Below, one piece after another: positions 2,129 to 35,387 of a stretch of DNA of 39,229 bases; position 1 is the stretch's first letter; every line of letters starts with the position of its first letter. The translations under genes and the position numbers were made by a program. This DNA comes from a virus. Lineage: Duplodnaviria > Heunggongvirae > Uroviricota > Caudoviricetes. The stretch is taken from IMG/VR virus record IMGVR_UViG_2537561824_000013. One strand, 5' to 3'. The notes below the pieces were generated by a model. It was given only the letters and a program-made list of their open reading frames with translations, ran no database searches and had not been told where the DNA came from.

Positions 2129-2608
2129 TCACCGCAACCTAAACTCATCCGCATCCTGCCATGCCGGAAACTTTTCTCTATATTCCCGCAATGCCATCAT
2201 CGACAGCTCCGCATCAATGCGCGTTGCCTGATGCGCGTCGGCAGTAGCGATAATCTCGCCTTGTGGATTAATCACCCGGCTGTCACCGCGATAATGGCAG
2301 CCGTTGCCATCGCTGCCGACGCGATTGCATCCCGCCACATACGCCTGATTCTCAATCGCGCGGGCCGTCAGCAATGCCTGCCAGTGCAGAGAGCGCGGAG
2401 CAGGCCAGTTGGCGACGTACAGGGCGAGGTCATAATCGTTGAGATTGCGCGACCACACAGGAAAACGTAAGTCGTAGCACACCAGCGGCAAAATACGCCA
2501 GCCGCGCCATTCCACAATCACTCGCGCATTGCCCGCTTTATAATGTAGATGCTCATCTGCCATGCGGAACAGATGACGCTTATCATAAAAATGTACCGTG
2601 CCGCCCGG
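2129..2608 (-). pseudogene. yafV: 5'-truncated carbon-nitrogen hydrolase (nitrilase superfamily) gene, yafV-like; N-terminal part displaced by the prophage insertion
   Basis: Product contains ...GTVHFYDKRHLF... and the catalytic-Cys context LVCYDLRFP typical of CN hydrolases; the first 16 residues of the track ORF (MPFIAQDRVHLSRGAS) read through the prophage terminal sequence, so the host-derived frame starts near 2608. The yafV name is from memory and unverified. Confidence 0.55.
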
Positions 2609-2686
2609 TGATGCGCCGCGCGATAAATGCACTCTATCTTGTGCGATAAATGGCATCCACGCGGCGTTTCATTATTTGAAAAAGAA
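2609..2686. mobile_element. Prophage terminal region (attR-like end) with candidate transposase-binding repeats
   Basis: Sequence starts TGATGCGCCGCGCGATAAATG at 2609; GCGATAAATG occurs directly repeated at 2620-2629 and 2643-2652; 78 bp separate the end from the invertase stop codon. Confidence 0.5.
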
Positions 2687-3259
2687 TTACATTTCAGGTT
2701 GCGTTATGACAGTCCCAACAGGGTGATAGCGGTAGATCGTTGACAGTCCAATATCATAGATAATTGCCAGCCGCTTTCTGTCATACCCTTTCTGGAGCAA
2801 TCTTGCGATCTGCTCATGCTGCTCCTTCGTCAGTTTCGGGCGACGTCCTCCAACTCTTCCTTGTGCTCGCGCAGCAGCCAGTCCAGCCAGCGTGCGCTCA
2901 ACTATCAGTTCACGCTCCATTTCTGCCAGTGCACCCATCATATGAAAAAAGAACCTTCCCATCGGAGTGCTGGTATCGATTGAATCCGTCAGACTGCGAA
3001 AATTGACACCTTTTGCGCGTAGCTCTTCTGTGAGAGCAATGAGGTGTTTCATTCTTCTACCCAACCGATCCAGCTTCCAGACCACCAATGTATCCCCTCT
3101 TTTAAGGCACTTTAAAGCGCGTTTCAGGCCTGGTCGTTCCGACTTGGTTCCGCTCATTTTGTCCTCAAAAATCTGTTCACATCCTGCGCACATTAATGCA
3201 TTGCGTTGCAAATCTGTGTTTTGGTCATTTGTTGACACACGTATGTAGCCAATCAGCAT
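2687..3259 (-). CDS. gin: Site-specific DNA invertase, Gin/Hin/Pin/Cin family serine recombinase
   Basis: ATG at complement of 3257-3259 preceded by AAGGGAG; product starts MLIGYIRVSTNDQNTDLQRNAL with the catalytic Ser context and ends in an HTH (GLSTIYRY); the 233-aa track ORF starting at GTG 3388 is an over-extension. Confidence 0.9.
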   Translation of the reverse strand: MLIGYIRVSTNDQNTDLQRNALMCAGCEQIFEDKMSGTKSERPGLKRALKCLKRGDTLVVWKLDRLGRRMKHLIALTEELRAKGVNFRSLTDSIDTSTPMGRFFFHMMGALAEMERELIVERTLAGLAAARAQGRVGGRRPKLTKEQHEQIARLLQKGYDRKRLAIIYDIGLSTIYRYHPVGTVITQPEM

Positions 3260-3325
3260 TAAAAATACTCCCTTTTGAGTGGTTAAAGTACTGAGATAAT
3301 GTGGGGAGGATTTGAGAGATAAACG

Positions 3326-3545
3326 TTGGTTTGGGGGAAGGCTCGGCGCTGCCCGTTGGTGTACCTGTTCCGTGGCCCACTGCCACACCGCCAGCAGGCT
3401 GGTTAAAGTGCGACGGGCGCGCCTTTACAAAAGAACAATATCCTGTTCTGGCCAGAGTCTACCCGACCCTCCGTCTTCCCGATTTGCGCGGTGAGTTTAT
3501 CCGTGGATGGGACGACGGGCGAAAAGTGGATACAGGGCGCGATCT
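3326..3545. repeat. Recombination repeat A at the 5' border of fiber cassette 1; inverted relative to repeat C
   Basis: About 220 bp nearly identical to 3765-3985 and, as reverse complement, to about 5150-5370; homology starts at TTGGTTTGGGGGAAGG, which resembles a gix/hix half-site (GGTTT...GGAA). Confidence 0.6.
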
Positions 3546-3759
3546 GCTTTCACGGCAGGATGGTACAAGTTTTTCTCATTACGCAGGTAATTTTGACATT
3601 GGGTCTGGTCATTCAATCAATAACTATGACCAAATCCTTGACAACCAACCTGGATTCTCCCGTTTTTCATTTGCAGGTCCTTCGCGAGGCGATGGGGTTA
3701 ATTATGTGACCATTCGTCCCCGTAACATTGCGTTTAATTACATCGTAAGGGCGGCATAG
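3331..3759 (+). CDS. Alternative tail-fiber C-terminal cassette 1 (promoterless and start-less exon, currently unexpressed orientation)
   Basis: Frame opens at TTG with no ATG or RBS; the first ~70 aa (GEGSALPVGVPVPWPTATPPAGWLKCDGRAF...GWDDGRKVDTGR) are identical to the matching segment of the expressed fiber, then diverge; ends in the conserved ...RPRNIAFNYIVRAA. Confidence 0.6.
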   Translation: MGEGSALPVGVPVPWPTATPPAGWLKCDGRAFTKEQYPVLARVYPTLRLPDLRGEFIRGWDDGRKVDTGRDLLSRQDGTSFSHYAGNFDIGSGHSINNYDQILDNQPGFSRFSFAGPSRGDGVNYVTIRPRNIAFNYIVRAA

Positions 3760-3764
3760 AAACG

Positions 3765-3985
3765 TTGGTTTGGGGGAAGGCTCTGCATTGCCTGTTGGTG
3801 TACCGGTTCCATGGCCCACCGCCACACCGCCAGCAGGCTGGTTACAGTGCAACGGAGCTACGTTCACCAAAGAACAATATCCTGTTCTGGCCAGAGTCTA
3901 CCCGACCCTCCGTCTTCCCGATTTGCGCGGTGAGTTTATCCGTGGATGGGACGGTGGTCGCAAGGTTGATACCGGGCGTGCGCTA
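3765..3985. repeat. Recombination repeat B at the 5' border of fiber cassette 2; direct with A, inverted relative to C
   Basis: Same shared sequence as repeat A, starting AACGTTGGTTTGGGGGAAGG. Confidence 0.6.
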
Positions 3986-4231
3986 CTTTCATTTCAGGAA
4001 GGGACTATCGTATCCGGTTTTGATGATAATGATACCGGAGATATCAGTTCGCTCGGCTCTACACAATACGGATTTGGTGACGCTTTAACCTCTAATCAAC
4101 TGGGGGTCTTAAATGGCAAAAAGTGGATATTTGATGCATCCTCTAAAGGTGCACAAAGATATGACTGGTGGGCTTATGTATCAGCTCGCCCCCGCAATAT
4201 CGCATTTAACTATATCGTGAGGGCGGCGTGA
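3770..4231 (+). CDS. Alternative tail-fiber C-terminal cassette 2 (promoterless and start-less exon)
   Basis: Frame opens at TTG; shares the N-terminal ~70 aa with cassette 1 and the fiber, then has a unique distal domain; same C-terminal NYIVRAA. Confidence 0.6.
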   Translation: MGEGSALPVGVPVPWPTATPPAGWLQCNGATFTKEQYPVLARVYPTLRLPDLRGEFIRGWDGGRKVDTGRALLSFQEGTIVSGFDDNDTGDISSLGSTQYGFGDALTSNQLGVLNGKKWIFDASSKGAQRYDWWAYVSARPRNIAFNYIVRAA

Positions 4232-4237
4232 TACCGT

Positions 4238-4852
4238 TCAGCCGGCAAGCGCCAGTGGCGCTTCCGGCCAGCTGATTTCAGGTGCCTTGCTGATATCCAG
4301 TGCGTTCAGCTCGTCGATATAATCCAGCACGGCGTTCAGTTTTGCCGTTTCTTCTGGTTTCAGACTGCGACCAGCACGCAGTTTGAGGTTGATAAGATCG
4401 ACGGACGCCATCGCCTGTTTCACCCGTTGCTGGCGTTGCTGTCTGGCAACCTCCAGTTCTGCGGCTCGCTGCCGTTCAGTATCGGTTACCCACGCCTCAC
4501 CGTTCCAGGTATCCCATGGCGTGGCTGGCTGTTTTGTGGTGGTGTCCGCCGGGTAATCACCCGGTTGGGTAATCAGAACGGGGTTACCGTTCTCCGTGCT
4601 GTATACCGTCTCGCCGCGGTGATCAGGCACATGCTCCCACCCGTTCAGCGTGGCAGTCCGGCAAACCACGTAACCCGAAATTGCTTCCGGCGGTGCATCG
4701 GCGCACGAATGTGCCGGAGTACCCACCCCAAGGGCGAGATACTCCACAGAGGATGAGGTGTATTCCCGGGTTTCCTCGTCATAGTGATATACAGTGATAT
4801 CGCCCGCTACAGTGGCGATACCGTTTTCATCCAGAACTGCAGTGTTACTCAT
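4238..4852 (-). CDS. Tail fiber assembly protein (Mu U / P2 G / Tfa-like chaperone)
   Basis: 204-aa ORF whose ATG overlaps the fiber stop codon; product has the N-terminal conserved region typical of Tfa proteins; its position right after the fiber gene matches Mu S-U. Confidence 0.75.
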   Translation of the reverse strand: MSNTAVLDENGIATVAGDITVYHYDEETREYTSSSVEYLALGVGTPAHSCADAPPEAISGYVVCRTATLNGWEHVPDHRGETVYSTENGNPVLITQPGDYPADTTTKQPATPWDTWNGEAWVTDTERQRAAELEVARQQRQQRVKQAMASVDLINLKLRAGRSLKPEETAKLNAVLDYIDELNALDISKAPEISWPEAPLALAG

Positions 4853-5149
4853 TAAACTGCCCTCACAATGTAATTAAGTGCAATGCTACGGGGTCTGACA
4901 GTGATACCCTTCGCATACCCGCTTCTGATAGAGGTCAGAATAGTAGCCTGCATACCATTGTCTGACATTGCCACGACAGGATCGCTGAATGTTGTCCCGT
5001 CCGGCATTTTAAAGCTGCCCTCACGAAGGTCTGTAATGGAATCTTCATTGTTGAATCCCATGCCGACTATCCCCGAGGTTCCCGTAGTGTCCTGGTTATA
5101 ATAATCCAGCATTGCTGTTCTTAACAGCGTTGCCCCTTGTGCGGACAGC

Positions 5150-5370
5150 AACTTACGTCCTGTATCAACTTTGCGCCCGTCGTCCCATCCACGGATAAAC
5201 TCACCGCGTAAATCGGGAAGACGGAGGGTCGGGTAGACTCTGGCCAGAACAGGATATTGTTCTTTTGTAAAGGCGCGCCCGTCGCACTTTAACCAGCCTG
5301 CTGGCGGTGTGGCGGTGGGCCACGGAACAGGCACACCAACGGGTAGCGCCGAGCCTTCTCCTAAACCAAG
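5150..5370. repeat. Recombination repeat C inside the expressed fiber gene; inverted relative to A and B
   Basis: Reverse complement reads CTTGGTTTAGGAGAAGGCTCGGCGCT... and is nearly identical to repeats A and B over about 220 bp. Confidence 0.6.
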
Positions 5371-5499
5371 GTAATTGAGGACATCTTTTATACTGCCCTT
5401 AGCGATAATAGCGCGACCAATAGCTGTAAGGGTTGCCAGCTCTGCGCGGTCTGCTCCGGTAAAATAAGGCAACCGATCTGCTGCAGTGGCAAGTCCTGC

Positions 5500-6000
5500 C
5501 AGAGCAGTGAGCGTGGCATCTGCCGGTTGTTTTCCGTTTGCCAGATCGTATGCAGCCTTGACCGCTTTCGGTGTGGCGGCCAGTATTTCAGACGTGCTGT
5601 TGATGGCACTGCTCAATTGTACGGTGCCTTTTGCCGTCAGCGAGGCAGCAGGCACTCCCGTTATCTGACTCCACGGGTGAGTGTGGCTGACGGGCGCCTT
5701 GCCGGCTGCAAGGTCGTATGCAGCCTTGACCGCCTTCGGCGTGGCAGCCTCAGTTTCTGATTGACTGTCCGTGGCGCTGCTCAGTTGTACGGTGCCTTTT
5801 GCCGTCAGCGAGGCAGCAGGCACTCCCGTTATCTGACTCCACGGGTGAGTTGGCTGACGGGGGCCTTGCCGGCAGCCAGGTCATATGCAGCCTTGACGGC
5901 CTTTGGTGTGGCGGCCAGCGTTTCAGAGGTGCTGTTGGTGGCACTGCTCAGTTGGGTGAACCCCTTAGCTGTCAGTGTCGCGTCCGGGTGGTTACGGGAA
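5500..6000. repeat. 168-bp tandem coding repeats (about three copies) in the tail fiber gene
   Basis: Each copy encodes ...SLTAKGTVQLSSATDSxSEtxAATPKAVKAAYDLAAGKAPVSHTHPWSQITGVPA...; the nucleotide copies are nearly identical. Confidence 0.8.
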
Positions 6001-6184
6001 CGTACGTGTTCAGCCAGTGACTGTGCGGCTTCCTCCGTTTTTTTCTTCAGCCATTTCGTCCTGTTTGCCAGTTGCCGGGGGGCTCGATTTGATATCCCGT
6101 CTGCACCACCCAGAACCGGATCTGATGTCTCCAGTTGATAGATATTTTCTTCCCACTTTTCTGTTTCATTCAGGTTTCCCATAA

Positions 6185-6763
6185 TCAACTGCTCCCGTGG
6201 TTATAACTGCCATCATGGATGGCGGTATTGTTATAGCGAATGGCCACAGACTGATACTCCAGGCTGGCCAGATGGCAGCGGGCCGGTGCAAATGCAGCGA
6301 GCGTCTGACGCAGCATCGCGGCCTGATCGTTAGTAATGGGCTGTTTCAGAATAACGCGATAAACTGCCCAGGCGGCTGCATCTCCATGAACAAACAGTCC
6401 GTTATAGCTGCGATTGCCGTCGTAACTGAGACGACCTGTGCCTTCAATCAGATCCACTTCACCAAAGCCAAAACGGCGGATAACTTCCCGGATTGACCAC
6501 GGCGTCCCTTTATACCGGTGCAGTTCGATGGCTGCTTTTATAAGCATGCGGCGAACATCGTCCGATTCCGCCAGCTCCCAGCCATCGCCAGACAGTGAGA
6601 ACTGCTCGCCCAGCCATGGCAGCGCGGAACTGTCGACGATATCGACGAGAAAGACCATCAGTACGCTCAGGTCGATGTTATCCAGCCGTCCTGCCAGTCT
6701 TCCCAGCGTCCTGAGACTGATATCACCCTCAAGCGGTGGCGGGAGTTGTAATGGCTCAGTCAT
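6185..6763 (-). CDS. Baseplate/tail protein (P2 gpI-like, Mu gp48-like)
   Basis: 192-aa ORF, ATG at 6763 overlapping the upstream stop; sits between the baseplate J-like gene and the fiber as in P2 and Mu. Confidence 0.65.
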   Translation of the reverse strand: MTEPLQLPPPLEGDISLRTLGRLAGRLDNIDLSVLMVFLVDIVDSSALPWLGEQFSLSGDGWELAESDDVRRMLIKAAIELHRYKGTPWSIREVIRRFGFGEVDLIEGTGRLSYDGNRSYNGLFVHGDAAAWAVYRVILKQPITNDQAAMLRQTLAAFAPARCHLASLEYQSVAIRYNNTAIHDGSYNHGSS

Positions 6764-29192: not shown

Positions 29193-29296
29193 ATCGCCCC
29201 ACAGGAATGCGCTGTGAGCCGACCAAGGTTCAGTCAGTCTCGCGAGACCTGACCAGACTGCCATATTTTTTAATAATTGTAAAAGGCTTGCAGATT

Positions 29297-30061
29297 ATGA
29301 AAATGCAGACATTACCCATCGTGCCGTGGATTGGTGGCAAACGCCGCCTTGCAAAACACATTCTGCCGCTGTTTCCGGCGCATGAATGTTATGTGGAGCC
29401 GTTTTGTGGGGCAGCAGCGCTCTATTTTCTTAAGACACCCGGCAAGATCGAAGTCATCAATGATATCAACGGTGAACTGGTGAATCTGTACCGGGTGGTA
29501 AAGCATCACCTGGAAGAATTTGTCCGCCAGTTCAAATGGGCGCTGGTCAGCCGTCAGATCTACAAATGGCTGCAGATCACCCCGGAAGAAACACTGACGG
29601 ATATCCAGCGTGCGGCACGGTTCTACTACCTTCAGAAGCAGGCGTTTGGCGGCAAGGTGGCAGAGCACAGCTTCGGTACCTCCACCACATCCCCGCCACG
29701 CTTCAACCTGCTACGTATTGAAGAAGAACTGTCAGCGGCACACCTGCGGCTTTCCAGAACAGTCATAGAACACATGGACTGGCAACAGTGCATTGAGCGT
29801 TATGATCGTCCGCACACGCTGTTCTACTGCGACCCACCGTACCTGGGTACGGAAGGCTATGGTGTGGATTTTCCTGAAGGGAACTACTCGCGGCTGGCAG
29901 AGCTGGCCCGGTGCATCAGAGGAAAAATGATAATTTCGGTGAACGACATCCCGCAGATGCGCGAGGTGTTCACTGGACTGAACATACAGACAGTGAATAT
30001 CAACTACAGTCTGGCGGGTAAACCCACGCCGCGCCGTGAACTGCTAATCTGCAACTTCTGA
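29297..30061 (+). CDS. DNA adenine methyltransferase, Dam-like (D12 class N6-adenine MTase)
   Basis: ATG at 29297; product MKMQTLPIVPWIGGKRRLAKHILP... has the Dam-type N-terminus, an AdoMet motif (EPFCGAAALYF) and the catalytic DPPY motif; specificity cannot be read from sequence. Confidence 0.85.
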   Translation: MKMQTLPIVPWIGGKRRLAKHILPLFPAHECYVEPFCGAAALYFLKTPGKIEVINDINGELVNLYRVVKHHLEEFVRQFKWALVSRQIYKWLQITPEETLTDIQRAARFYYLQKQAFGGKVAEHSFGTSTTSPPRFNLLRIEEELSAAHLRLSRTVIEHMDWQQCIERYDRPHTLFYCDPPYLGTEGYGVDFPEGNYSRLAELARCIRGKMIISVNDIPQMREVFTGLNIQTVNINYSLAGKPTPRRELLICNF

Positions 30062-30068
30062 AACAAAA

Positions 30069-30091
30069 CCGGAAAGCACAATGCTTTCCGG
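30069..30091 (-). terminator. Intrinsic terminator for the repressor transcript (also sits just after the methyltransferase gene)
   Basis: CCGGAAAGCA caa TGCTTTCCGG is a 10-bp stem; on the minus strand it is followed by TTTTGTTT. Confidence 0.55.
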
Positions 30092-30177
30092 TAAACCAAA
30101 CAACTTCCACTATGTCACTGGCGATGTTTTCTGAAAGCATCCAGATCAACCACCTGTCCTTTGTGTCCGGGTCAGTA

Positions 30178-30534
30178 TCAGCCTGCGATTTTTCCTGGTT
30201 TTGGCTGAGTATAGAATCGCCCAATCTCAAGAAATGAGCGTTGTTGGTCTGGTGTCATGTCGTCAAAAGTATCTATTAGTTTTTGTTTTTCTGGGGAAAT
30301 TTGATTCTGGTTTCTAGTCATACCATCTGTGCTCATTCCAGTGAGCAACCAATTTACATCAACATTAAACTCTTGATGCATCTTTAACAGAAACTCCCCT
30401 CCAGGCATCGCCTTTCCATTTTCAATCTGACTGATACCACCATTAGAAATACCTAAACGAGCTGCAAATTCTCTCTGGTTCAACCCTGCTTTCTTCCTCA
30501 CAGAAATAACGCGCTCTCCTATATCTTTGCTCAT
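30178..30534 (-). CDS. Prophage immunity repressor, XRE-family HTH protein
   Basis: 118-aa ORF divergent from the early operon; HTH segment LNQREFAARLGISNGGISQIENGK; its start codon lies inside an operator half-site. Confidence 0.8.
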   Translation of the reverse strand: MSKDIGERVISVRKKAGLNQREFAARLGISNGGISQIENGKAMPGGEFLLKMHQEFNVDVNWLLTGMSTDGMTRNQNQISPEKQKLIDTFDDMTPDQQRSFLEIGRFYTQPKPGKIAG

Positions 30535-30575
30535 AAAAGTGAATCTCTATCTTGATATGCTCATAATTATGAGCA
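30528..30575. promoter_or_regulatory. Candidate operator/divergent promoter region between the repressor and the early operon
   Basis: Perfect 18-bp palindrome TGCTCATAATTATGAGCA at 30558-30575 plus an extra half-site TGCTCATAA at 30528-30536 overlapping the repressor ATG. Confidence 0.55.
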
Positions 30576-30627
30576 ATAATCTAACACATATAAGGCAAAC
30601 ATCATTGCATCAACAAAGGAGACAACG

Positions 30628-30816
30628 ATGACTGCAGAACAAGTCAAAGCTCTCTTCCGCCAGCGCGGGATCACTTTCACCCGCTGGGCAGAAGAAAACG
30701 GCTACAACCGCAATGAGGTATACCGCGTTCTCAACGGGCAGACCAAAGCCCGTTACGGTAAATCCCATGAAATCGCCGTGAAGTTGGGACTGAAATCAAC
30801 AGCTCAGGCGGCCTAA
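30628..30816 (+). CDS. Small DNA-binding early regulator (functional position of Mu Ner / lambda Cro)
   Basis: ATG at 30628 with AAAGGAGA upstream; 62-aa product with an HTH-like segment (YNRNEVYRVLNGQTKARYG); first gene of the rightward operon opposite the repressor. Confidence 0.55.
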   Translation: MTAEQVKALFRQRGITFTRWAEENGYNRNEVYRVLNGQTKARYGKSHEIAVKLGLKSTAQAA

Positions 30817-30862
30817 ATATTTTGAGTCTTTGTAAAAGGTTATCACATATCGCAAAAGAGGT

Positions 30863-31177
30863 ATGCAGATGAGTAAGACGAATGTTTCAAGCTCCGGCAG
30901 TCGCATCCTCCGGGTACTCAAAGCGCTGCGCGGTCATGCCCTGAACGGTATTTCTAACGGTGAACTGGCGACAGCACTGCACGAGTCACCGGCAAACATC
31001 AACCGGGCACTCAACACCCTCATTGAAGAAGGGCTGGCTCTGAAACTGGAGAACGGACGTTTTGCACCGGGCATCCAGTTACTGCAGATCGCCATGGCCC
31101 ACAGTAACGAGATGGCACGTGCACAGGATCGTATTAACGAAATTAACCAACGTGTCATTTCAGGTAGTCGTTTGTAA
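30863..31177 (+). CDS. Putative winged-helix DNA-binding protein
   Basis: 104-aa ORF with ATG at 30863; HTH-like segment ISNGELATALHESPANINRALNTLIEEGL. Confidence 0.45.
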   Translation: MQMSKTNVSSSGSRILRVLKALRGHALNGISNGELATALHESPANINRALNTLIEEGLALKLENGRFAPGIQLLQIAMAHSNEMARAQDRINEINQRVISGSRL

Positions 31178-31187
31178 GGAGTAATCA

Positions 31188-32108
31188 ATGGGACGTACCA
31201 AATCACCGATTAACACTGAACTGAACGCCGATGTACCGCTGTCGGATGATCTCAACGTCAGCCTGAATGCCATGACACAGCATCGCATGGAGATCATGCA
31301 GCAGTTTGGTGATGGACTGCCTTATGAACGTGAACGCATCGTTCACGAAGCACGTTTTTATATGGCGCAGAGTGCTGAATCTATGTTGGAAGCGGGTAAG
31401 CGGCTGATCATCTTAAAAGAAAATGAACCGCATGGTGATTTCACAAATATTCTGGAAAACGACCTCGGATTAGCACCACAGGTAGCTCGTCGCATGATGC
31501 AGGCCAGCGTGAAATTTCTCGGCAATGGAGATGAACAGCCAAAACGCTCAGCGCTGAGCGTTTTGGGAAAAACCAAGTTATATGAACTGATGGTTCTGGA
31601 TGACGAAGAACTCGACGCATTAGCTGATGGTGGAACCGTCGCCGGTGCAACGCTTGATGATATTGATCGCATGACCAGCCGCGAACTGAAGGCCGCCCTG
31701 CGTGAAGCGCGCGAAACCAACGCAGCTCAGCAACAGGTGCTTGCCGGAAAGGACGAAAAAATCAACGAACTGGCCACAAAACTGGAGAAGAAATCGCGCC
31801 TGCAACCTCCGCCGCCAGACGAAGAACTGAAAAAATTGCGGGCGGAAGTGACGGCATTAGCGGTTGAGGCCGAATCGGCTATCGCCGTCCGGCTGTCCAG
31901 TGTTTTTGAGACCCTGTGTGAATACTGCACCAAAAACATGATCGATACCCCCAGAGATTTCATGGCCGGTCTGGTCTGCCAGATTGAACGCAGTGTTCAT
32001 GCATTACGTGAGACGTTTGACCTTGAGGCCGCTCCATCGGGTAACGATGCCCCCGCCTGGCTGACCGAACCGGAACCTGAAATCAACCGACCGGAGGATA
32101 TGCAGTAA
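31188..32108 (+). CDS. Hypothetical early protein (306 aa)
   Basis: ATG at 31188 with TAAGGAG upstream; acidic helical protein; no family recognised. Confidence 0.5.
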   Translation: MGRTKSPINTELNADVPLSDDLNVSLNAMTQHRMEIMQQFGDGLPYERERIVHEARFYMAQSAESMLEAGKRLIILKENEPHGDFTNILENDLGLAPQVARRMMQASVKFLGNGDEQPKRSALSVLGKTKLYELMVLDDEELDALADGGTVAGATLDDIDRMTSRELKAALREARETNAAQQQVLAGKDEKINELATKLEKKSRLQPPPPDEELKKLRAEVTALAVEAESAIAVRLSSVFETLCEYCTKNMIDTPRDFMAGLVCQIERSVHALRETFDLEAAPSGNDAPAWLTEPEPEINRPEDMQ

Positions 32109-32425
32109 TGAATACGAATAACACACAAAATACCCTGATGGACAGCCCGGAGGCACTGGGGCACGCACTGTGTAATCTGCTGCCGGAGATGGTGCAGGGT
32201 TTCCGCGTGGTGACCCCTTCCGGTGAAATCTGCGTACCCGCACAGGAGACGCACCCGTTTGTACTGACGATGGAGGTGATGCTGATGCAGCAGATAAGAC
32301 GTCTGCAGAATCAGTCAGCATTACGCCCGGTAGTTGCACCGCAACCGGTAAATACCGTGGTGAAAACCTGCGATGGCGAAACACTGTGCGACCTCGCCAG
32401 AAAAATTGCCGCCAGAATCGGATAA
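32108..32425 (+). CDS. Hypothetical early protein (105 aa)
   Basis: ATG at 32108 in a TAATG overlap with the preceding stop. Confidence 0.45.
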   Translation: MNTNNTQNTLMDSPEALGHALCNLLPEMVQGFRVVTPSGEICVPAQETHPFVLTMEVMLMQQIRRLQNQSALRPVVAPQPVNTVVKTCDGETLCDLARKIAARIG

Positions 32426-32440
32426 CAGGGAAGACAAGCT

Positions 32441-34210
32441 ATGACCCCGGCACTGACTGAAAAACTGGTTGAAACAGCCCGCGCGGCACGTGACGCGGGG
32501 CATGGTAAACGCGGTGCAATATACGACGCTGCCTGTGCTGAACTTGGCATGTCCCGCGCCACTCTGCTGCGCAGGCTGAAGGAGGTATCTGTGACTGATA
32601 AACGCAAAAAACGCGCCGATGCCGGGCGCAGCGCCCTGACCCGCGACGAAGCCGCGCTGATATCTGCCACACTGCGTGAGGCCACCCGCAAGAACGGTAA
32701 GCGTCTCTATTCCATCGCAGATGCAGTGGAAACCCTGCGGGCTAACGGCTTTATCACCGCAGGCAGAACAGATGAAACCACCAGTGAGTTTTTCCCGTTG
32801 TCTGAAGATGCCATCAGCCGTGCTCTGCGTAACTATGGCCTGCACCCGGAACAACTGGATGCCCCTGCACCACATACCGAAGTGGCCAGTCTGCATCCCA
32901 ATCATGTCTGGCAGATTGACGCCTCACTCTGCACGCTTTACTACCTGAGCAATGGACATAAAGGGCTGCAGGTGATGGACAGCGCGAAGTTCTACAAGAA
33001 CAAGCCCGCTAACCTTGCCCGTATCGCCAGTGACCGCGTGTGGAGTTACGAGATTACCGACCATGCCAGCGGCTGGATTTACGTTGAGTATGTGACGGGC
33101 GCGGAATCAGGTGAGAACCTGTGTTCTGTGCTTATCAACGCCATGCAGGAGCGTGGCGGCGCAGACGTGCTGCACGGCGTGCCGAAAATACTCTATCTCG
33201 ACCCCGGCTCGGCAAACACCGCGGGTATGACGAAAAACATGTGCCGCTCACTGGGCATCGACCTGATAGCGCACAAGCCGCATAACGCCCGCGCCACCGG
33301 ACAGGTGGAAAAGGCGCGTGACATTATCGAACGCAAGCTGGAGCCGGGTCTGAAGTTCCGGCCGGTTCACAGTCTGGAAGAACTCAACGCGCTGGCCGCG
33401 AAATGGCGCAGCCACTTTAACGCCACGGCTGTTCACAGCCGCCACGGTAAAACCCGCACGGATATCTGGCTGAAGATTACTGCTGAGCAGCTGAAAAAAG
33501 CGCCTTCCGTTGAGGTATGTCGTGAACTGGCTGTGGCGGCACCAGAACTCCGCAAAGTCACGCCAAAACTTCGTGTCTCGTTCCGGGGCACTGAATTTGA
33601 CGTATCAACGGTACCGGGCGTACTGGTTGGTGAAAAACTGATGATTACCCGTAACCCATGGCGCAGCGATGTGGCACAGGTGGTTCTGACCGGTGAGGAC
33701 GGCCACGAGACGTTCTTCCTGGTCGAAGAGGTCAGAAAGAACGAGTTTGGCTTTGCTGAAGGCGCGGCGGTATTTGGCGAAAGTTACAAAGCCCTGCCGG
33801 AAACCCCGGCACAGATGGCGGCAAAAGAAACCGAAGCGCTGGTTACCGGTACAGACAACGCCGCAGATGCAGCCGCCGCACGCAAGGCGAAGGCGCTGCC
33901 GTTCGGCGGGCGGCTTGACCCGTATAAACATATCGACGACACCACACTTCCGGCCTATATGCCGAAGCGTGGTCAGGCCTCTGACGTACGCGGGCCGCGC
34001 ACTGAACAACGTCCCATGACTCATGTGGAGGCCGCGAAAGCCCTGCGCGATAAGTTCAGCGCCGACGGCCTTACCTGGACGCCGGAACATTACCGCCAGT
34101 TAACGGCACAGTACCCGGACGGCGTACCGGAAGCCGCACTGGATGAAGTCATGGCCACGCTGACCACACCGGCCCGCAGCAGTGTTATCAGCATTGTTAA
34201 CGGCAACTGA
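32441..34210 (+). CDS. DDE transposase (integrase-core/rve-type; functional equivalent of MuA)
   Basis: 589-aa ORF with ATG at 32441; N-terminal HTH, then candidate catalytic triad in ...VWQIDAS..., ...LYLDPGSAN... and ...TGQVEKA... with about 35 aa between the second D and the E; followed by the B-like ATPase. Confidence 0.85.
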   Translation: MTPALTEKLVETARAARDAGHGKRGAIYDAACAELGMSRATLLRRLKEVSVTDKRKKRADAGRSALTRDEAALISATLREATRKNGKRLYSIADAVETLRANGFITAGRTDETTSEFFPLSEDAISRALRNYGLHPEQLDAPAPHTEVASLHPNHVWQIDASLCTLYYLSNGHKGLQVMDSAKFYKNKPANLARIASDRVWSYEITDHASGWIYVEYVTGAESGENLCSVLINAMQERGGADVLHGVPKILYLDPGSANTAGMTKNMCRSLGIDLIAHKPHNARATGQVEKARDIIERKLEPGLKFRPVHSLEELNALAAKWRSHFNATAVHSRHGKTRTDIWLKITAEQLKKAPSVEVCRELAVAAPELRKVTPKLRVSFRGTEFDVSTVPGVLVGEKLMITRNPWRSDVAQVVLTGEDGHETFFLVEEVRKNEFGFAEGAAVFGESYKALPETPAQMAAKETEALVTGTDNAADAAAARKAKALPFGGRLDPYKHIDDTTLPAYMPKRGQASDVRGPRTEQRPMTHVEAAKALRDKFSADGLTWTPEHYRQLTAQYPDGVPEAALDEVMATLTTPARSSVISIVNGN

Positions 34211-34220
34211 GGAGGGAAAC

Positions 34221-35387
34221 ATGCTGGTACTGAAGCAGCAACTGAAAGAGGCCCGTATTCCACAGGCGGTGGTGGCGAGAGCTGTCGATGTTTCTGAGGC
34301 CACGCTGGCCCAGATTGTGAATCATAACGCGTGGCCCCGCACCAGCCCCGGAGAAGTGCGCCGGCGTCTTGCGTCCTGGCTGGAAAGTCAGGGGATTGAT
34401 ACAACGAAGAGTTTTGATGCTGTACAGGGCGCGGCCACGCCCCGTACAGCGGGTACCACAGATAAAACGAGCCTCAGTGAGGAAGAGAATATGTTACTCA
34501 AAAAACAGGTGTTATTTCCAGCAACCAAAAAAGCGTTTGGTCTTTTCCGTGACCCGTTCGCCGACGAAGCCATGCAGGGTTCTGATGATGTGTTCACCAC
34601 CCCGGATATTCGCTACGTGCGTGAGGCGTTGTACCAGACAGCCCGTCATGGTGGGTTTATGGCCGTCATCGGTGAGTCCGGTGCGGGTAAATCCACGCTG
34701 CGCCGCGACCTGACTGAACGTATCAACCGCGAGAATGCGCCGGTAATTGTTATCGAGCCATACATCATCGCTATGGAAGACAACGATGTGAAAGGGAAAA
34801 CCCTGAAGGCAGCAGCGATTGCCGAAGCCATTATCAGTACCATCGCACCACTGGAAAGCATCAGACGCAGTCAGGACGCCCGCTTTCGCCAGTTGCATCG
34901 CGTCCTGAAAGACAGCAGCCAGGCGGGGTTCAGCCACGTTCTGGTGATTGAGGAGGCCCACAGTCTGCCCATTCCGACACTGAAACACCTCAAACGCTTT
35001 TTTGAGCTGGAGTCCGGTTTCAAAAAACTGCTGTCCATCGTGCTGATTGGCCAGCCGGAACTGGCGACAAAACTGTCTGAACGCAATATGGAAGTCCGTG
35101 AAGTCGTTCAGCGCTGTGAGGTGGTCGAACTTCTGCCTCTGGACAATAACCTTGAAGAGTTTCTGACGTTCAAACTGCAACGGGCCGGTAAACAACTGAC
35201 GGACATTATGGACGCCAGCGCAGTGGATGCCATACGTGCCCGCCTGAGCAATCCGGGAAGTCATCGTAAAAATATGGTCAGCCTGCTGTATCCGCTGGCC
35301 GTCAGTAACCTGGTAATAGCCGCCATGAATCTGGCCGCTGAAATCGGGGTTCCACAGGTCAACGCTGACGTTGTCAAAGGGGTTTAA
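34221..35387 (+). CDS. Transposition helper ATPase (AAA+; MuB/TniB-like)
   Basis: ATG at 34221 with GAGGAGGGAAAC upstream; Walker A GESGAGKST and Walker B-like VLVIEEAH; immediately downstream of the transposase. Confidence 0.8.
   Translation: MLVLKQQLKEARIPQAVVARAVDVSEATLAQIVNHNAWPRTSPGEVRRRLASWLESQGIDTTKSFDAVQGAATPRTAGTTDKTSLSEEENMLLKKQVLFPATKKAFGLFRDPFADEAMQGSDDVFTTPDIRYVREALYQTARHGGFMAVIGESGAGKSTLRRDLTERINRENAPVIVIEPYIIAMEDNDVKGKTLKAAAIAEAIISTIAPLESIRRSQDARFRQLHRVLKDSSQAGFSHVLVIEEAHSLPIPTLKHLKRFFELESGFKKLLSIVLIGQPELATKLSERNMEVREVVQRCEVVELLPLDNNLEEFLTFKLQRAGKQLTDIMDASAVDAIRARLSNPGSHRKNMVSLLYPLAVSNLVIAAMNLAAEIGVPQVNADVVKGV

Follow-up and report, generated by a model that had tools for sequence, protein, structure and literature searches.

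Evidence for a multi-site Min/Gin-type inversion switch at the tail fibre gene of the Mu/BcepMu-like prophage Phi2 of Escherichia coli ST131

Introduction

How many receptor-binding ends can a temperate phage join to a single tail fibre gene, and what kind of recombination exchanges them? One end of a prophage raised this question. The prophage lies in a window of 39,229 nucleotides, which is the whole stretch of DNA analyzed in the present study and to which all positions without a strain name refer. The first-pass annotation of this DNA proposed a three-way switch, in which one expressed fibre end and two silent cassettes are bounded by three repeats next to a Gin-type invertase.

Din-family invertases switch fibre ends in the C segment of P1 (Cin) and the P segment of e14 (Pin), and the crossover sites of P1 are located at the outer edge of long inverted repeats within the invertible segment. 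In the Min system, one Din-family serine invertase acts on more than two crossover sites in both orientations, with overlapping invertible segments, and alternative 3′ ends of the tail fibre gene are joined to one constant 5′ part. With six sites, Min produces hundreds of isomers; it is carried by a P1-like plasmid prophage. Multi-site inversion by this family of invertases has reportedly been known since 1990 from p15B Min, through the work of Sandmeier, Iida, Arber, and others in 1990 and 1992.

Results

The fibre ORF region (4852-6188, minus strand) encodes Phage_fiber_2 repeats and a Collar domain. The constant 5′ part of the gene (5370..6182, minus strand; ATG at 6182-6180) contains three tandem Phage_fiber_2 repeats of approximately 167 nt (5531-6017) and ends at crossover site C. 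The current variable end, v0 (4852..5367, minus strand), consists of repeat C (5144-5367), an 86-aa insert, and a RPRSIALNYIVRAV end. Two silent cassettes are located on the plus strand. Cassette c1 (3328..3759) has repeat A (to 3551) followed by a variable insert of 58 aa and a RPRNIAFNYIVRAA end; it stops with TAG at 3757-3759 and has no ATG start. In cassette c2 (3767..4231), repeat B (to 3990) precedes a variable insert of 69 aa and the same RPRNIAFNYIVRAA end. The locus has a single gene for tail-fibre assembly (chaperone), tfa (4238..4852, minus strand; 204 aa; Caudo_TAP PF02413, 94.9 bits), with a start that overlaps the v0 stop codon (TAATG). Neither c1 nor c2 has a tfa of its own.

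All three ends were assigned to the Collar family (PF07484), with scores of 56.1 (v0), 58.5 (c1), and 57.7 bits (c2) against a gathering cut-off of 24; T4 gp37 and a short-tail-fibre structure were matched as well. A predicted structure of the v0 tip was unusable (pLDDT of 37 from a three-row alignment); the collar architecture is based on the Pfam assignments and the similarity to 2xgf and 9cuy at the sequence level. The T4 gp37 tip (PDB 2xgf) matches in the N-terminal collar part (E = 5e-14) and has its domain closed by the same ...IAFNYIVR strand at the C terminus; however, its insert is much longer, and it is not subject to switching by inversion. A common ...NYIVRAA end had been noted for the three variants. 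This applies to c1 and c2, whereas the current end finishes with ...NYIVRAV. In structural terms, the common ...NYIVRA forms the final strand of the tail-collar fold, in the same way as in T4 gp37; it is not a recombination feature. In EC958-type sequence, in-frame fusions of the three ends result in predicted fibres of 443, 426, and 415 aa.

A repeat search located repeat A at 3323-3551 (plus), repeat B at 3762-3990 (plus), and repeat C at 5144-5372 (inverted). The repeats are approximately 226-229 nt each with pairwise identities of 86-94%, and encode the conserved first half of the tail-collar domain (approximately 225 nt after the 26-bp site). Counted from the core dinucleotide, the number of identical positions per 226 nt is 212 for A/C, 194 for B/C, and 198 for A/B. 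Three repeats adjoining a Gin-type invertase, two direct and one inverted, were thus present as annotated; their description as near-identical is appropriate for A/C (94%), but not for B (86-88%).

Every repeat opens with a 26-bp gix-like site, and all three sites have a 12-2-12 layout and a common TT core. Site A (3314..3339, plus strand; GAGAGATAAACG TT GGTTTGGGGGAA; core 3326-3327) has the fixed flank on the invertase side as its left half. The left half of site B (3753..3778, plus strand; GGCATAGAAACG TT GGTTTGGGGGAA; core 3765-3766) is the terminus of c1, including its stop codon. Site C (5356..5381, minus strand; TCCTCAATTACC TT GGTTTAGGAGAA read in the fibre sense; core 5368-5369) has the end of the constant fibre part (...NYLGLGEGS) as its left half. 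The right half GGTTTRGGRGAA is common to sites A, B, and C, and the right halves agree with gix GGTTTACAGGAA at 8-9 of 12 positions. The 16-mer TTGGTTTRGGRGAAGG occurs in exactly three copies in the 39-kb window (3326, 3765, and 5354-5369 on the minus strand); shuffled controls contained a mean of 0.05 copies, and three copies in 0 of 100 shuffles.

The adjacent gene (2687..3259, minus strand) encodes a serine DNA invertase of 190 aa (MLIGYIRVS..., catalytic Ser9), and its transcription points away from the invertible region. The protein has Resolvase (PF00239, 172 bits) and HTH_7 (PF02796, 48 bits) domains and is 73% identical to Mu Gin, with which Ser9, within MLIGYIRVSTNDQ, aligns. Its annotation as Gin-type was borne out by the match of residues 1-181 to the Gin structures 4m6f/3uj3 (E = 2e-93), to which the match to gamma-delta resolvase (E = 1e-32) is far inferior. 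The proximal crossover core lies 67 nt from the invertase start codon, both here and in Mu. A candidate Fis-binding 15-mer, GCGCAGGATGTGAAC (3175..3189, minus strand; nt 71-85 of the invertase gene), matches the Fis consensus, and Mu gin carries a match, GTGCAGGATGTGAAC, at the same gene position. A strict pattern detected no second Fis site. Judging from its sequence and position, the 15-mer may belong to a recombinational enhancer within the 5′ portion of the invertase gene. A sigma-70 promoter scan of 2600-6400 gave no match and was uninformative on the invertase promoter or the silence of the cassettes.

The locus corresponds to prophage Phi2 of E. coli EC958; positions 2609-6300 are 99.6% identical to EC958 1004835-1008525. 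Sites A and C coincide exactly with the published EC958 1005540..1005565 and c1007582..1007607, and are identical to "Phi2_3prime" and "Phi2_5prime", respectively, in Table 3 of Forde et al. (2014, PLoS One, PMC4134206). These authors set the same 26-mers against the Din consensus, reported the Phi2 inversion from PacBio reads, and assembled the alternative contigs. At one EC958 prophage switch, approximately half of the PacBio reads showed the alternative orientation, and orientations were mixed inside one EC958 culture (Forde et al. 2014, PMC4134206). Phi2 was published with two sites, a 2,067-bp segment, and a mirror-image model; site B, the fibre-c2 product, and the fourth isomer are absent from Forde et al. 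(2014, PMC4134206). The copy in the window differs from EC958 Phi2 in its chromosomal site and in a frameshift in the fibre gene.

Predicted inversion products were built in silico and searched for in complete E. coli genomes. All four reachable isomers were present, mostly in ST131. The parent arrangement (fibre-v0-tfa, state 1) was single-piece and full-length in 30 of the 30 matches listed. Among the matches listed for the other queries, 36 were single-piece and full-length for fibre-c1-c2 (state 3), including JJ1886, in contrast to JJ1887, which has the parent arrangement; 40 were found for fibre-c2 (state 2; AR_0055 and 39 others) and 25 for fibre-c1-v0-tfa (state 4). Counts of genomes with at least 80% coverage in one place (217, 201, 168, and 318, with 327 and 159 for two control queries) are only rough and are mutually inconsistent because internal repeats and the tandem repeats of the fibre alter the joining of pieces. 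Therefore, we relied on the listed single-piece full-length matches and on exact string matches.

Over 3,900 nt, JJ1886 and U14A showed 100% identity to the A x C product (state 3) built from EC958, AR_0055 to the B x C product (state 2), and U13A to the double-inversion product (state 4). Cassette c1 is in frame with the constant fibre part in JJ1886, U14A, and U13A, and c2 is joined to it in AR_0055. The fusions of c1 by A x C and of c2 by B x C, both of which had been predicted from the window, exist exactly in these genomes. A third pairing, between the invertase-side and middle sites, opens after A x C and produces the fourth isomer, with c1 followed by v0 and tfa. U13A and U14A are near-identical urine isolates (chromosomes of 5,061,273 and 5,061,272 bp), and their sole difference over 7.2 kb is one inversion between the sites at 1003289 and 1004889, which pairs the invertase-side site with the middle site. 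All genomes inspected keep every cassette, and tfa travels with v0 in all four isomers. Downstream of the c1 fibre, tfa is co-oriented in state 4 and inverted in state 3. The proposed three-way switch therefore has three fibre ends, as claimed, but four isomers rather than three.

We considered whether only A and C switch, as in the classical two-way Mu-like arrangement, with site B and c2 as a decayed inactive duplicate. Repeat B is the most diverged of the three, and Forde et al. (2014, PMC4134206) described only two Phi2 sites in a mirror-image two-allele model. However, exact products that need site B exist, namely, fibre-c2 in AR_0055 and 39 other listed genomes, and U13A and U14A are separated by just one inversion, in which the invertase-side site is paired with the middle site. 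Site B and c2 are not a decayed duplicate in view of the site-B products in AR_0055 and U13A/U14A, and we regard a two-way switch as hardly credible.

At every junction examined, the flank stays and everything from GGTTT onward moves with the cassette. The gix-like element noted at the start of the homology is, thus, the crossover site. From the exact 3,900-nt matches in four genomes, strand exchange maps to the 7-nt stretch at the core, TTGGTTT. With their length and 86-94% identity, the repeats would suffice for occasional homologous exchange, and the isomers might have arisen by general RecA-dependent recombination between the 226-nt repeats, with the gix-like sites and the invertase being irrelevant. 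However, a random crossover across 226 nt has only an approximately 3% chance each time of landing in the first 7 nt, real genomes are identical to the predicted core-exchange products (100% over 3,900 nt), and polymorphisms from 6 nt past the core follow the cassette in states 2, 3, and 4 as well as in the inter-prophage event of strain 4/0 described below. An origin by homologous recombination is extremely improbable; on these sequence comparisons, site-specific recombination at the core explains the inversions.

Strain 4/0 contains, in addition to the Mu-like prophage, a P2-like prophage that carries an invertase of its own together with three sites and collar cassettes. The P2-like prophage recombined with the invertase-side site of the Mu-like prophage exactly at the TT core. 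This inter-prophage exchange inverted 44 kb of the chromosome (dmsA to aroA), and the c2 cassette of the Mu-like prophage is now on the P2-like fibre. The arrangement was found in 1 of 5,426 genomes and is not a recurrent state. That crossover sites of this type are shared between unrelated prophages, as in strain 4/0, is a possibility that we regard as doubtful.

The inversions may be real but catalyzed in trans by the invertase of another prophage, with the adjacent gene being dispensable or inactive. ST131 has other Din-type invertases, the P2-like prophage of strain 4/0 combines an 84%-identical invertase with the same type of site, and Forde et al. (2014, PMC4134206) argued for trans action at Phi4, the invertase of which is truncated. 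However, the adjacent invertase is full length with Ser9 present, and one protein accession is maintained across every arrangement examined (WP_000904922.1 in EC958, JJ1886, AR_0055, U13A, U14A, and TUM1857). Its spacing to the proximal site also equals that of gin. Furthermore, the sites of typical ST131 Phi1 and Phi4 have a TC core, not TT (Forde et al. 2014, PMC4134206), and would therefore be incompatible with the TT sites, although their enzymes could still act. Catalysis in trans is unlikely, and the adjacent invertase, rather than that of another prophage, probably does the work.

A 1-nt deletion near 5851 relative to EC958 breaks the constant fibre part of the window into ORFs of 119 and 323 aa. 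The fibre ORF is intact in EC958 and JJ1886, and TUM1857 shares the frameshift allele. The current end is in place, as the first-pass annotation stated, but its designation as expressed is doubtful for this copy because the deletion splits the gene. As read from its sequence, the frameshifted copy may make no fibre in whatever orientation. The switch in the window may accordingly be a functionless relic, in which the DNA still flips, the fibre gene is a pseudogene, and the phage particle is unaffected. However, the deletion is located within a tandem repeat among a cluster of substitutions and may have been introduced in error during assembly or polishing. The remainder of the prophage appears complete, and recent mobility is implied by the occurrence of the same phage at several chromosomal locations. 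A relic is conceivable and deserves some weight, but we do not favor it.

Discussion

The locus and the kind of system have already been published, and the switch is real and active. The present study adds the use of a third site, the four-isomer cycle, the frameshift in the fibre gene of the window, and one 44-kb inter-prophage inversion. The locus is very probably a multi-site Min/Gin-type programmed inversion switch through which a myophage changes the receptor-binding end of its tail fibre.

We propose that the switch operates at one end of the transposable Mu/BcepMu-like prophage Phi2 of E. coli ST131, where three alternative 3′ ends (v0 with tfa, c1, and c2) would be joined to the constant 5′ fibre part at site C. 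The adjacent serine invertase (Ser9) would bind pairs of sites in inverted orientation, perhaps assisted by Fis bound to a putative enhancer in the 5′ coding region of the invertase gene, cut the central TT, turn the half-sites by 180 degrees, and religate them. The pairings C x A and C x B, as well as invertase-side x middle site once C x A has taken place, are all in use and link the isomers in a cycle of four states: fibre-v0-tfa, as in the window (state 1), fibre-c2 (state 2), fibre-c1 followed by c2 (state 3), and fibre-c1 followed by v0-tfa (state 4). The alternative ends probably differ in host range. Since the orientation of tfa differs between states 3 and 4, isomers with the same end could also differ in function.

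The locus resembles Min in having one Din-family invertase, more than two sites in both orientations, and one constant 5′ part. Its three sites, the use of all three pairings, overlapping segments, and four isomers are of the Min type. However, it has three sites and four isomers on a Mu/BcepMu-like chromosomal prophage, and, unlike in Min, its cassettes are short collar-domain tips, only one of which has a chaperone gene. Three fibre ends where Mu has two were therefore correctly recognized in the window, but are not unprecedented in view of p15B Min.

The likeness to the Mu G segment and Gin extends to the 73% identity of the invertases, 26-bp 12-2-12 sites, the 67-nt spacing from site to invertase, the position of the Fis-consensus match, and the order and orientation of the fibre gene, chaperone gene, and invertase gene. 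In contrast, Mu has two sites with a TC core, a short inverted repeat, and mirror-image pairs S/U and S′/U′, each with its own chaperone, whereas this locus has three sites with a TT core, one chaperone, and repeats of approximately 226 nt within the invertible DNA. Three sites, three ends, and a single tfa rule out a classical two-state Mu G-segment switch. The sites at the outer edge of long repeats inside the invertible segment represent a P1-like layout; however, P1 Cin and e14 Pin are two-site, two-state systems. The R64 shufflon similarly uses several inversions to select one of multiple C-terminal ends of an adhesin, but its recombinase, Rci, is a tyrosine recombinase and its target is the pilus adhesin PilV, rather than a phage fibre. 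A shufflon (Rci on sfx sites) was ruled out because the recombinase here is of the serine/resolvase type.

These results do not change the understanding of Din-type inversion systems. Should inter-prophage events be recurrent, receptor-binding cassettes would be pooled among co-resident phages by Din invertases, which would also drive inversions of the chromosome. In complete E. coli assemblies, the switch is also a frequent source of spurious contigs, pseudogene calls, and apparent "rearrangements". Since the four isomers are common among near-identical isolates, differences at this locus should not be taken for a phylogenetic signal or translocations. For a temperate phage of the pandemic ST131 lineage, the switch changes the receptor-binding tip that would be displayed.

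Organization of the switch

Gene order was read from ORFs and Pfam matches. The invertase (2687-3259, minus strand; Resolvase and HTH_7) is followed by two silent, start-less cassettes, c1 (to a stop at 3759) and c2 (to a stop at 4231), both on the plus strand with a Collar match. The tail-fibre assembly chaperone gene tfa (4238-4852, minus; Caudo_TAP) and the fibre gene (4852-6188, minus; three Phage_fiber_2 repeats and Collar) come next, and the fibre stop overlaps the tfa start. A repeat search of the window identified direct copies A (3323-3551, invertase side) and B (3762-3990, middle) and an inverted copy, C (5144-5372, on the fibre). The repeats, cassettes, fibre, and invertase of the first-pass annotation were, thus, all present; however, the near-identity attributed to the three repeats did not extend to B, which was only 86-88% identical to A and C. 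Across the 226 nt that start at the core dinucleotide, A and C had 212 positions in common, B and C 194, and A and B 198. The 16-mer TTGGTTTRGGRGAAGG, with which every repeat copy starts, occurred three times in the 39-kb window versus 0.05 expected from shuffles.

Each repeat opens with a 26-bp element of a 12-2-12 layout: site A (GAGAGATAAACG TT GGTTTGGGGGAA, 3314-3339), site B (GGCATAGAAACG TT GGTTTGGGGGAA, 3753-3778), and site C (TCCTCAATTACC TT GGTTTAGGAGAA, 5356-5381, minus strand). In the fibre sense, all three have a TT core, whereas Mu gix is TTATCCAAAACC TC GGTTTACAGGAA. The left halves are unique flank (the invertase leader in A, the end of c1 in B, and the end of the constant fibre part in C), and the homology of approximately 226 nt lies wholly within invertible DNA.

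Four isomers in E. coli genomes

Since the anchored outer sites keep opposite orientations and the middle site flips only with inversion of the whole region, only four arrangements are reachable in silico, linked as a cycle. In state 1, that of the window, the fibre continues into the current end, v0, and tfa; in state 2 into c2; in state 3 into c1, then c2; and in state 4 into c1, then v0-tfa. Among complete E. coli genomes, the locus was 99.6-100% identical to a prophage present mostly in ST131 (EC958, JJ1886/7, and others). The in-silico inverted locus was searched against these genomes and full-length single-piece matches were taken. Among the matches listed, state 2 occurred in 40 genomes, state 3 in 36, including JJ1886, and state 4 in 25, all counts being approximate; JJ1887 carries state 1. 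All four states occurred within one human-isolate set (R/S series).

We also inverted the EC958 sequence precisely between core dinucleotides, which gave 3,900-nt strings for the four states. Exact matches were obtained for state 3 in JJ1886 and U14A, state 2 in AR_0055, and state 4 in U13A. The predicted A x C and B x C fusions therefore exist (state 3 and state 2). The switch was described as three-way, which holds for its ends; however, its arrangements number four, all found in complete genomes. The urine isolates U13A (chromosome of 5,061,273 bp) and U14A (5,061,272 bp) differ across 7.2 kb only in the segment between the invertase-side and middle sites. This difference is one inversion through the third site pairing.

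Point of exchange and the invertase

At every junction, the flank was unaltered up to ...ACG or ...ACC, and the incoming cassette supplied everything from GGTTT on, including the first polymorphism 6 nt past the core. Exchange is therefore confined to TTGGTTT, at the gix-like element where the homology had been noted to begin, and this is the behaviour of a Din invertase. Homologous recombination across the 226 nt was rejected because it would not confine exchange in this manner.

The invertase is Gin-type, as annotated: it matched Gin crystal structures with E 2e-93 and gamma-delta resolvase with 1e-32, shares 73% identity with Gin, and has Ser9. The proximal core lies 67 nt from the invertase start codon, equal to Mu, and a Fis-consensus 15-mer occupies gene nt 71-85 in both this gene and Mu gin. 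Because both positions are as in Mu, the invertase gene likely contains a Fis-dependent enhancer.

Cassettes and chaperone

Pfam assigned a Collar domain to v0, c1, and c2. The inserts between the conserved parts had no significant mutual similarity (E at least 0.045), and calling the distal domains unrelated is justified as far as sequence goes. The final 14 residues (RPRNIAFNYIVRAA) are conserved among the ends; however, the common ending ...NYIVRAA does not apply to v0, which finishes NYIVRAV. With the T4 gp37 tip (2xgf), the N-terminal collar part gave a match of E 5e-14 and the terminal IAFNYIVR a weak one. Since the chain in that structure goes out to the tip, comes back, and closes the collar, we infer that the common C-terminal end is structural and that every cassette consists of a collar domain into which a variable segment is inserted.

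The co-oriented chaperone was correctly assigned to v0: the single tfa accompanies v0 in every state. In states 2 and 3 it is directed away from the fibre gene, and in state 4 it lies co-oriented downstream of c1-v0. That some ends have no chaperone of their own appears to reflect design and not decay, because a P2-like prophage of E. coli strain 4/0 has the same plan, with several collar cassettes and one tfa (L005 14-2763). This prophage has its own invertase (84% identical) and the same site type (…AAAACG TT GGTTTGGGGGAA). The layout of several tips and one chaperone therefore recurs in an unrelated phage backbone.

Inversion between prophages in strain 4/0

In strain 4/0, 44 kb is inverted, from dmsA to aroA plus the whole P2-like prophage (L004 1-2400 and L005 1-3700; NZ_CP023849.1 955000-1003000). 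One end is the P2-like prophage's fibre crossover site, and the other is the invertase-side site of the Mu-like prophage. Both junctions are exactly at the TT core, and c2 is now joined to the P2-like fibre. The arrangement was found in one of 5,426 genomes, and a misassembly is possible. A closely related cluster of invertase and cassettes lies on a 93-kb plasmid of strain KY 1497 (NZ_AP019805.1 59551-62799) and matches 70% of the 4/0 query at 98.9%; the plasmid may be a phage-plasmid that has a switch of this type.

The present prophage copy

Compared with EC958, the window has, within 5800-5905, a 1-nt deletion near 5851 and ten clustered substitutions, which lie inside the third of the 167-nt tandem repeats of the fibre gene. 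The deletion splits the constant part of the fibre gene into ORFs 5829-6188 and 4852-5823. The fibre is intact in EC958 and JJ1886, and TUM1857 has the same broken allele as the window; either the split is genuine and the gene a pseudogene, or it stems from an error in polishing the repeat. In RefSeq (loci L001, L002, L003, and L009), the annotation varies with the isomer. PGAP splits the fibre ORFs of EC958 and JJ1886, although intact, into several partial pseudogenes and calls the start-less cassettes "phage tail protein" CDSs, whose TTG start codons arise from the crossover site.

The prophage is transposable and Mu/BcepMu-like, with an rve-family transposase (32441-34210), an AAA ATPase (34182-35387), and a Mu portal. 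The early region (29207-35387), which also contains a D12-class adenine methyltransferase (29207-30061), lies on the strand opposite the late genes, a BcepMu-like layout. The insertion site is aroA in ST131, otsB in TUM1857, and a hydrolase fragment with ISEc1 in the window. Both of the latter adjoin the prophage end within 951-2656: the ISEc1 (ISAs1-family) transposase gene at 951-2087 and, at 2129-2656, a fragment of 175 aa from the C-terminus of a carbon-nitrogen hydrolase. This prophage/host junction was found in no complete E. coli genome of the collection. Elsewhere the same phage adjoins aroA, otsB, yehY, upaG, and others, as expected of a transposable phage.

Relation to published systems

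In the Min system of p15B, as in the present switch, a Din invertase inverts fibre ends at multiple sites. The locus itself is prophage Phi2 of EC958, described by Forde et al. 2014 (PMC4134206), whose PacBio assembly gave a separate contig with the Phi2 region inverted. They gave 2,067 bp as the length of the invertible segment and 227 bp as that of the inverted repeat, with sites at c1007582..1007607 and 1005540..1005565 (their Table 3), onto which window positions 5356 and 3314 (sites C and A) map. Their model is a two-allele mirror, and site B is absent from their listing. For ST131 wound isolates, a bioRxiv paper of 2026 mentions a "translocation" in the corresponding prophage; a switch between state 1 and state 4 has this appearance. 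Given the earlier descriptions of Phi2 and p15B Min, the finding is correct but already known; what it adds to published work is that the third site functions and that the four states form a cycle.
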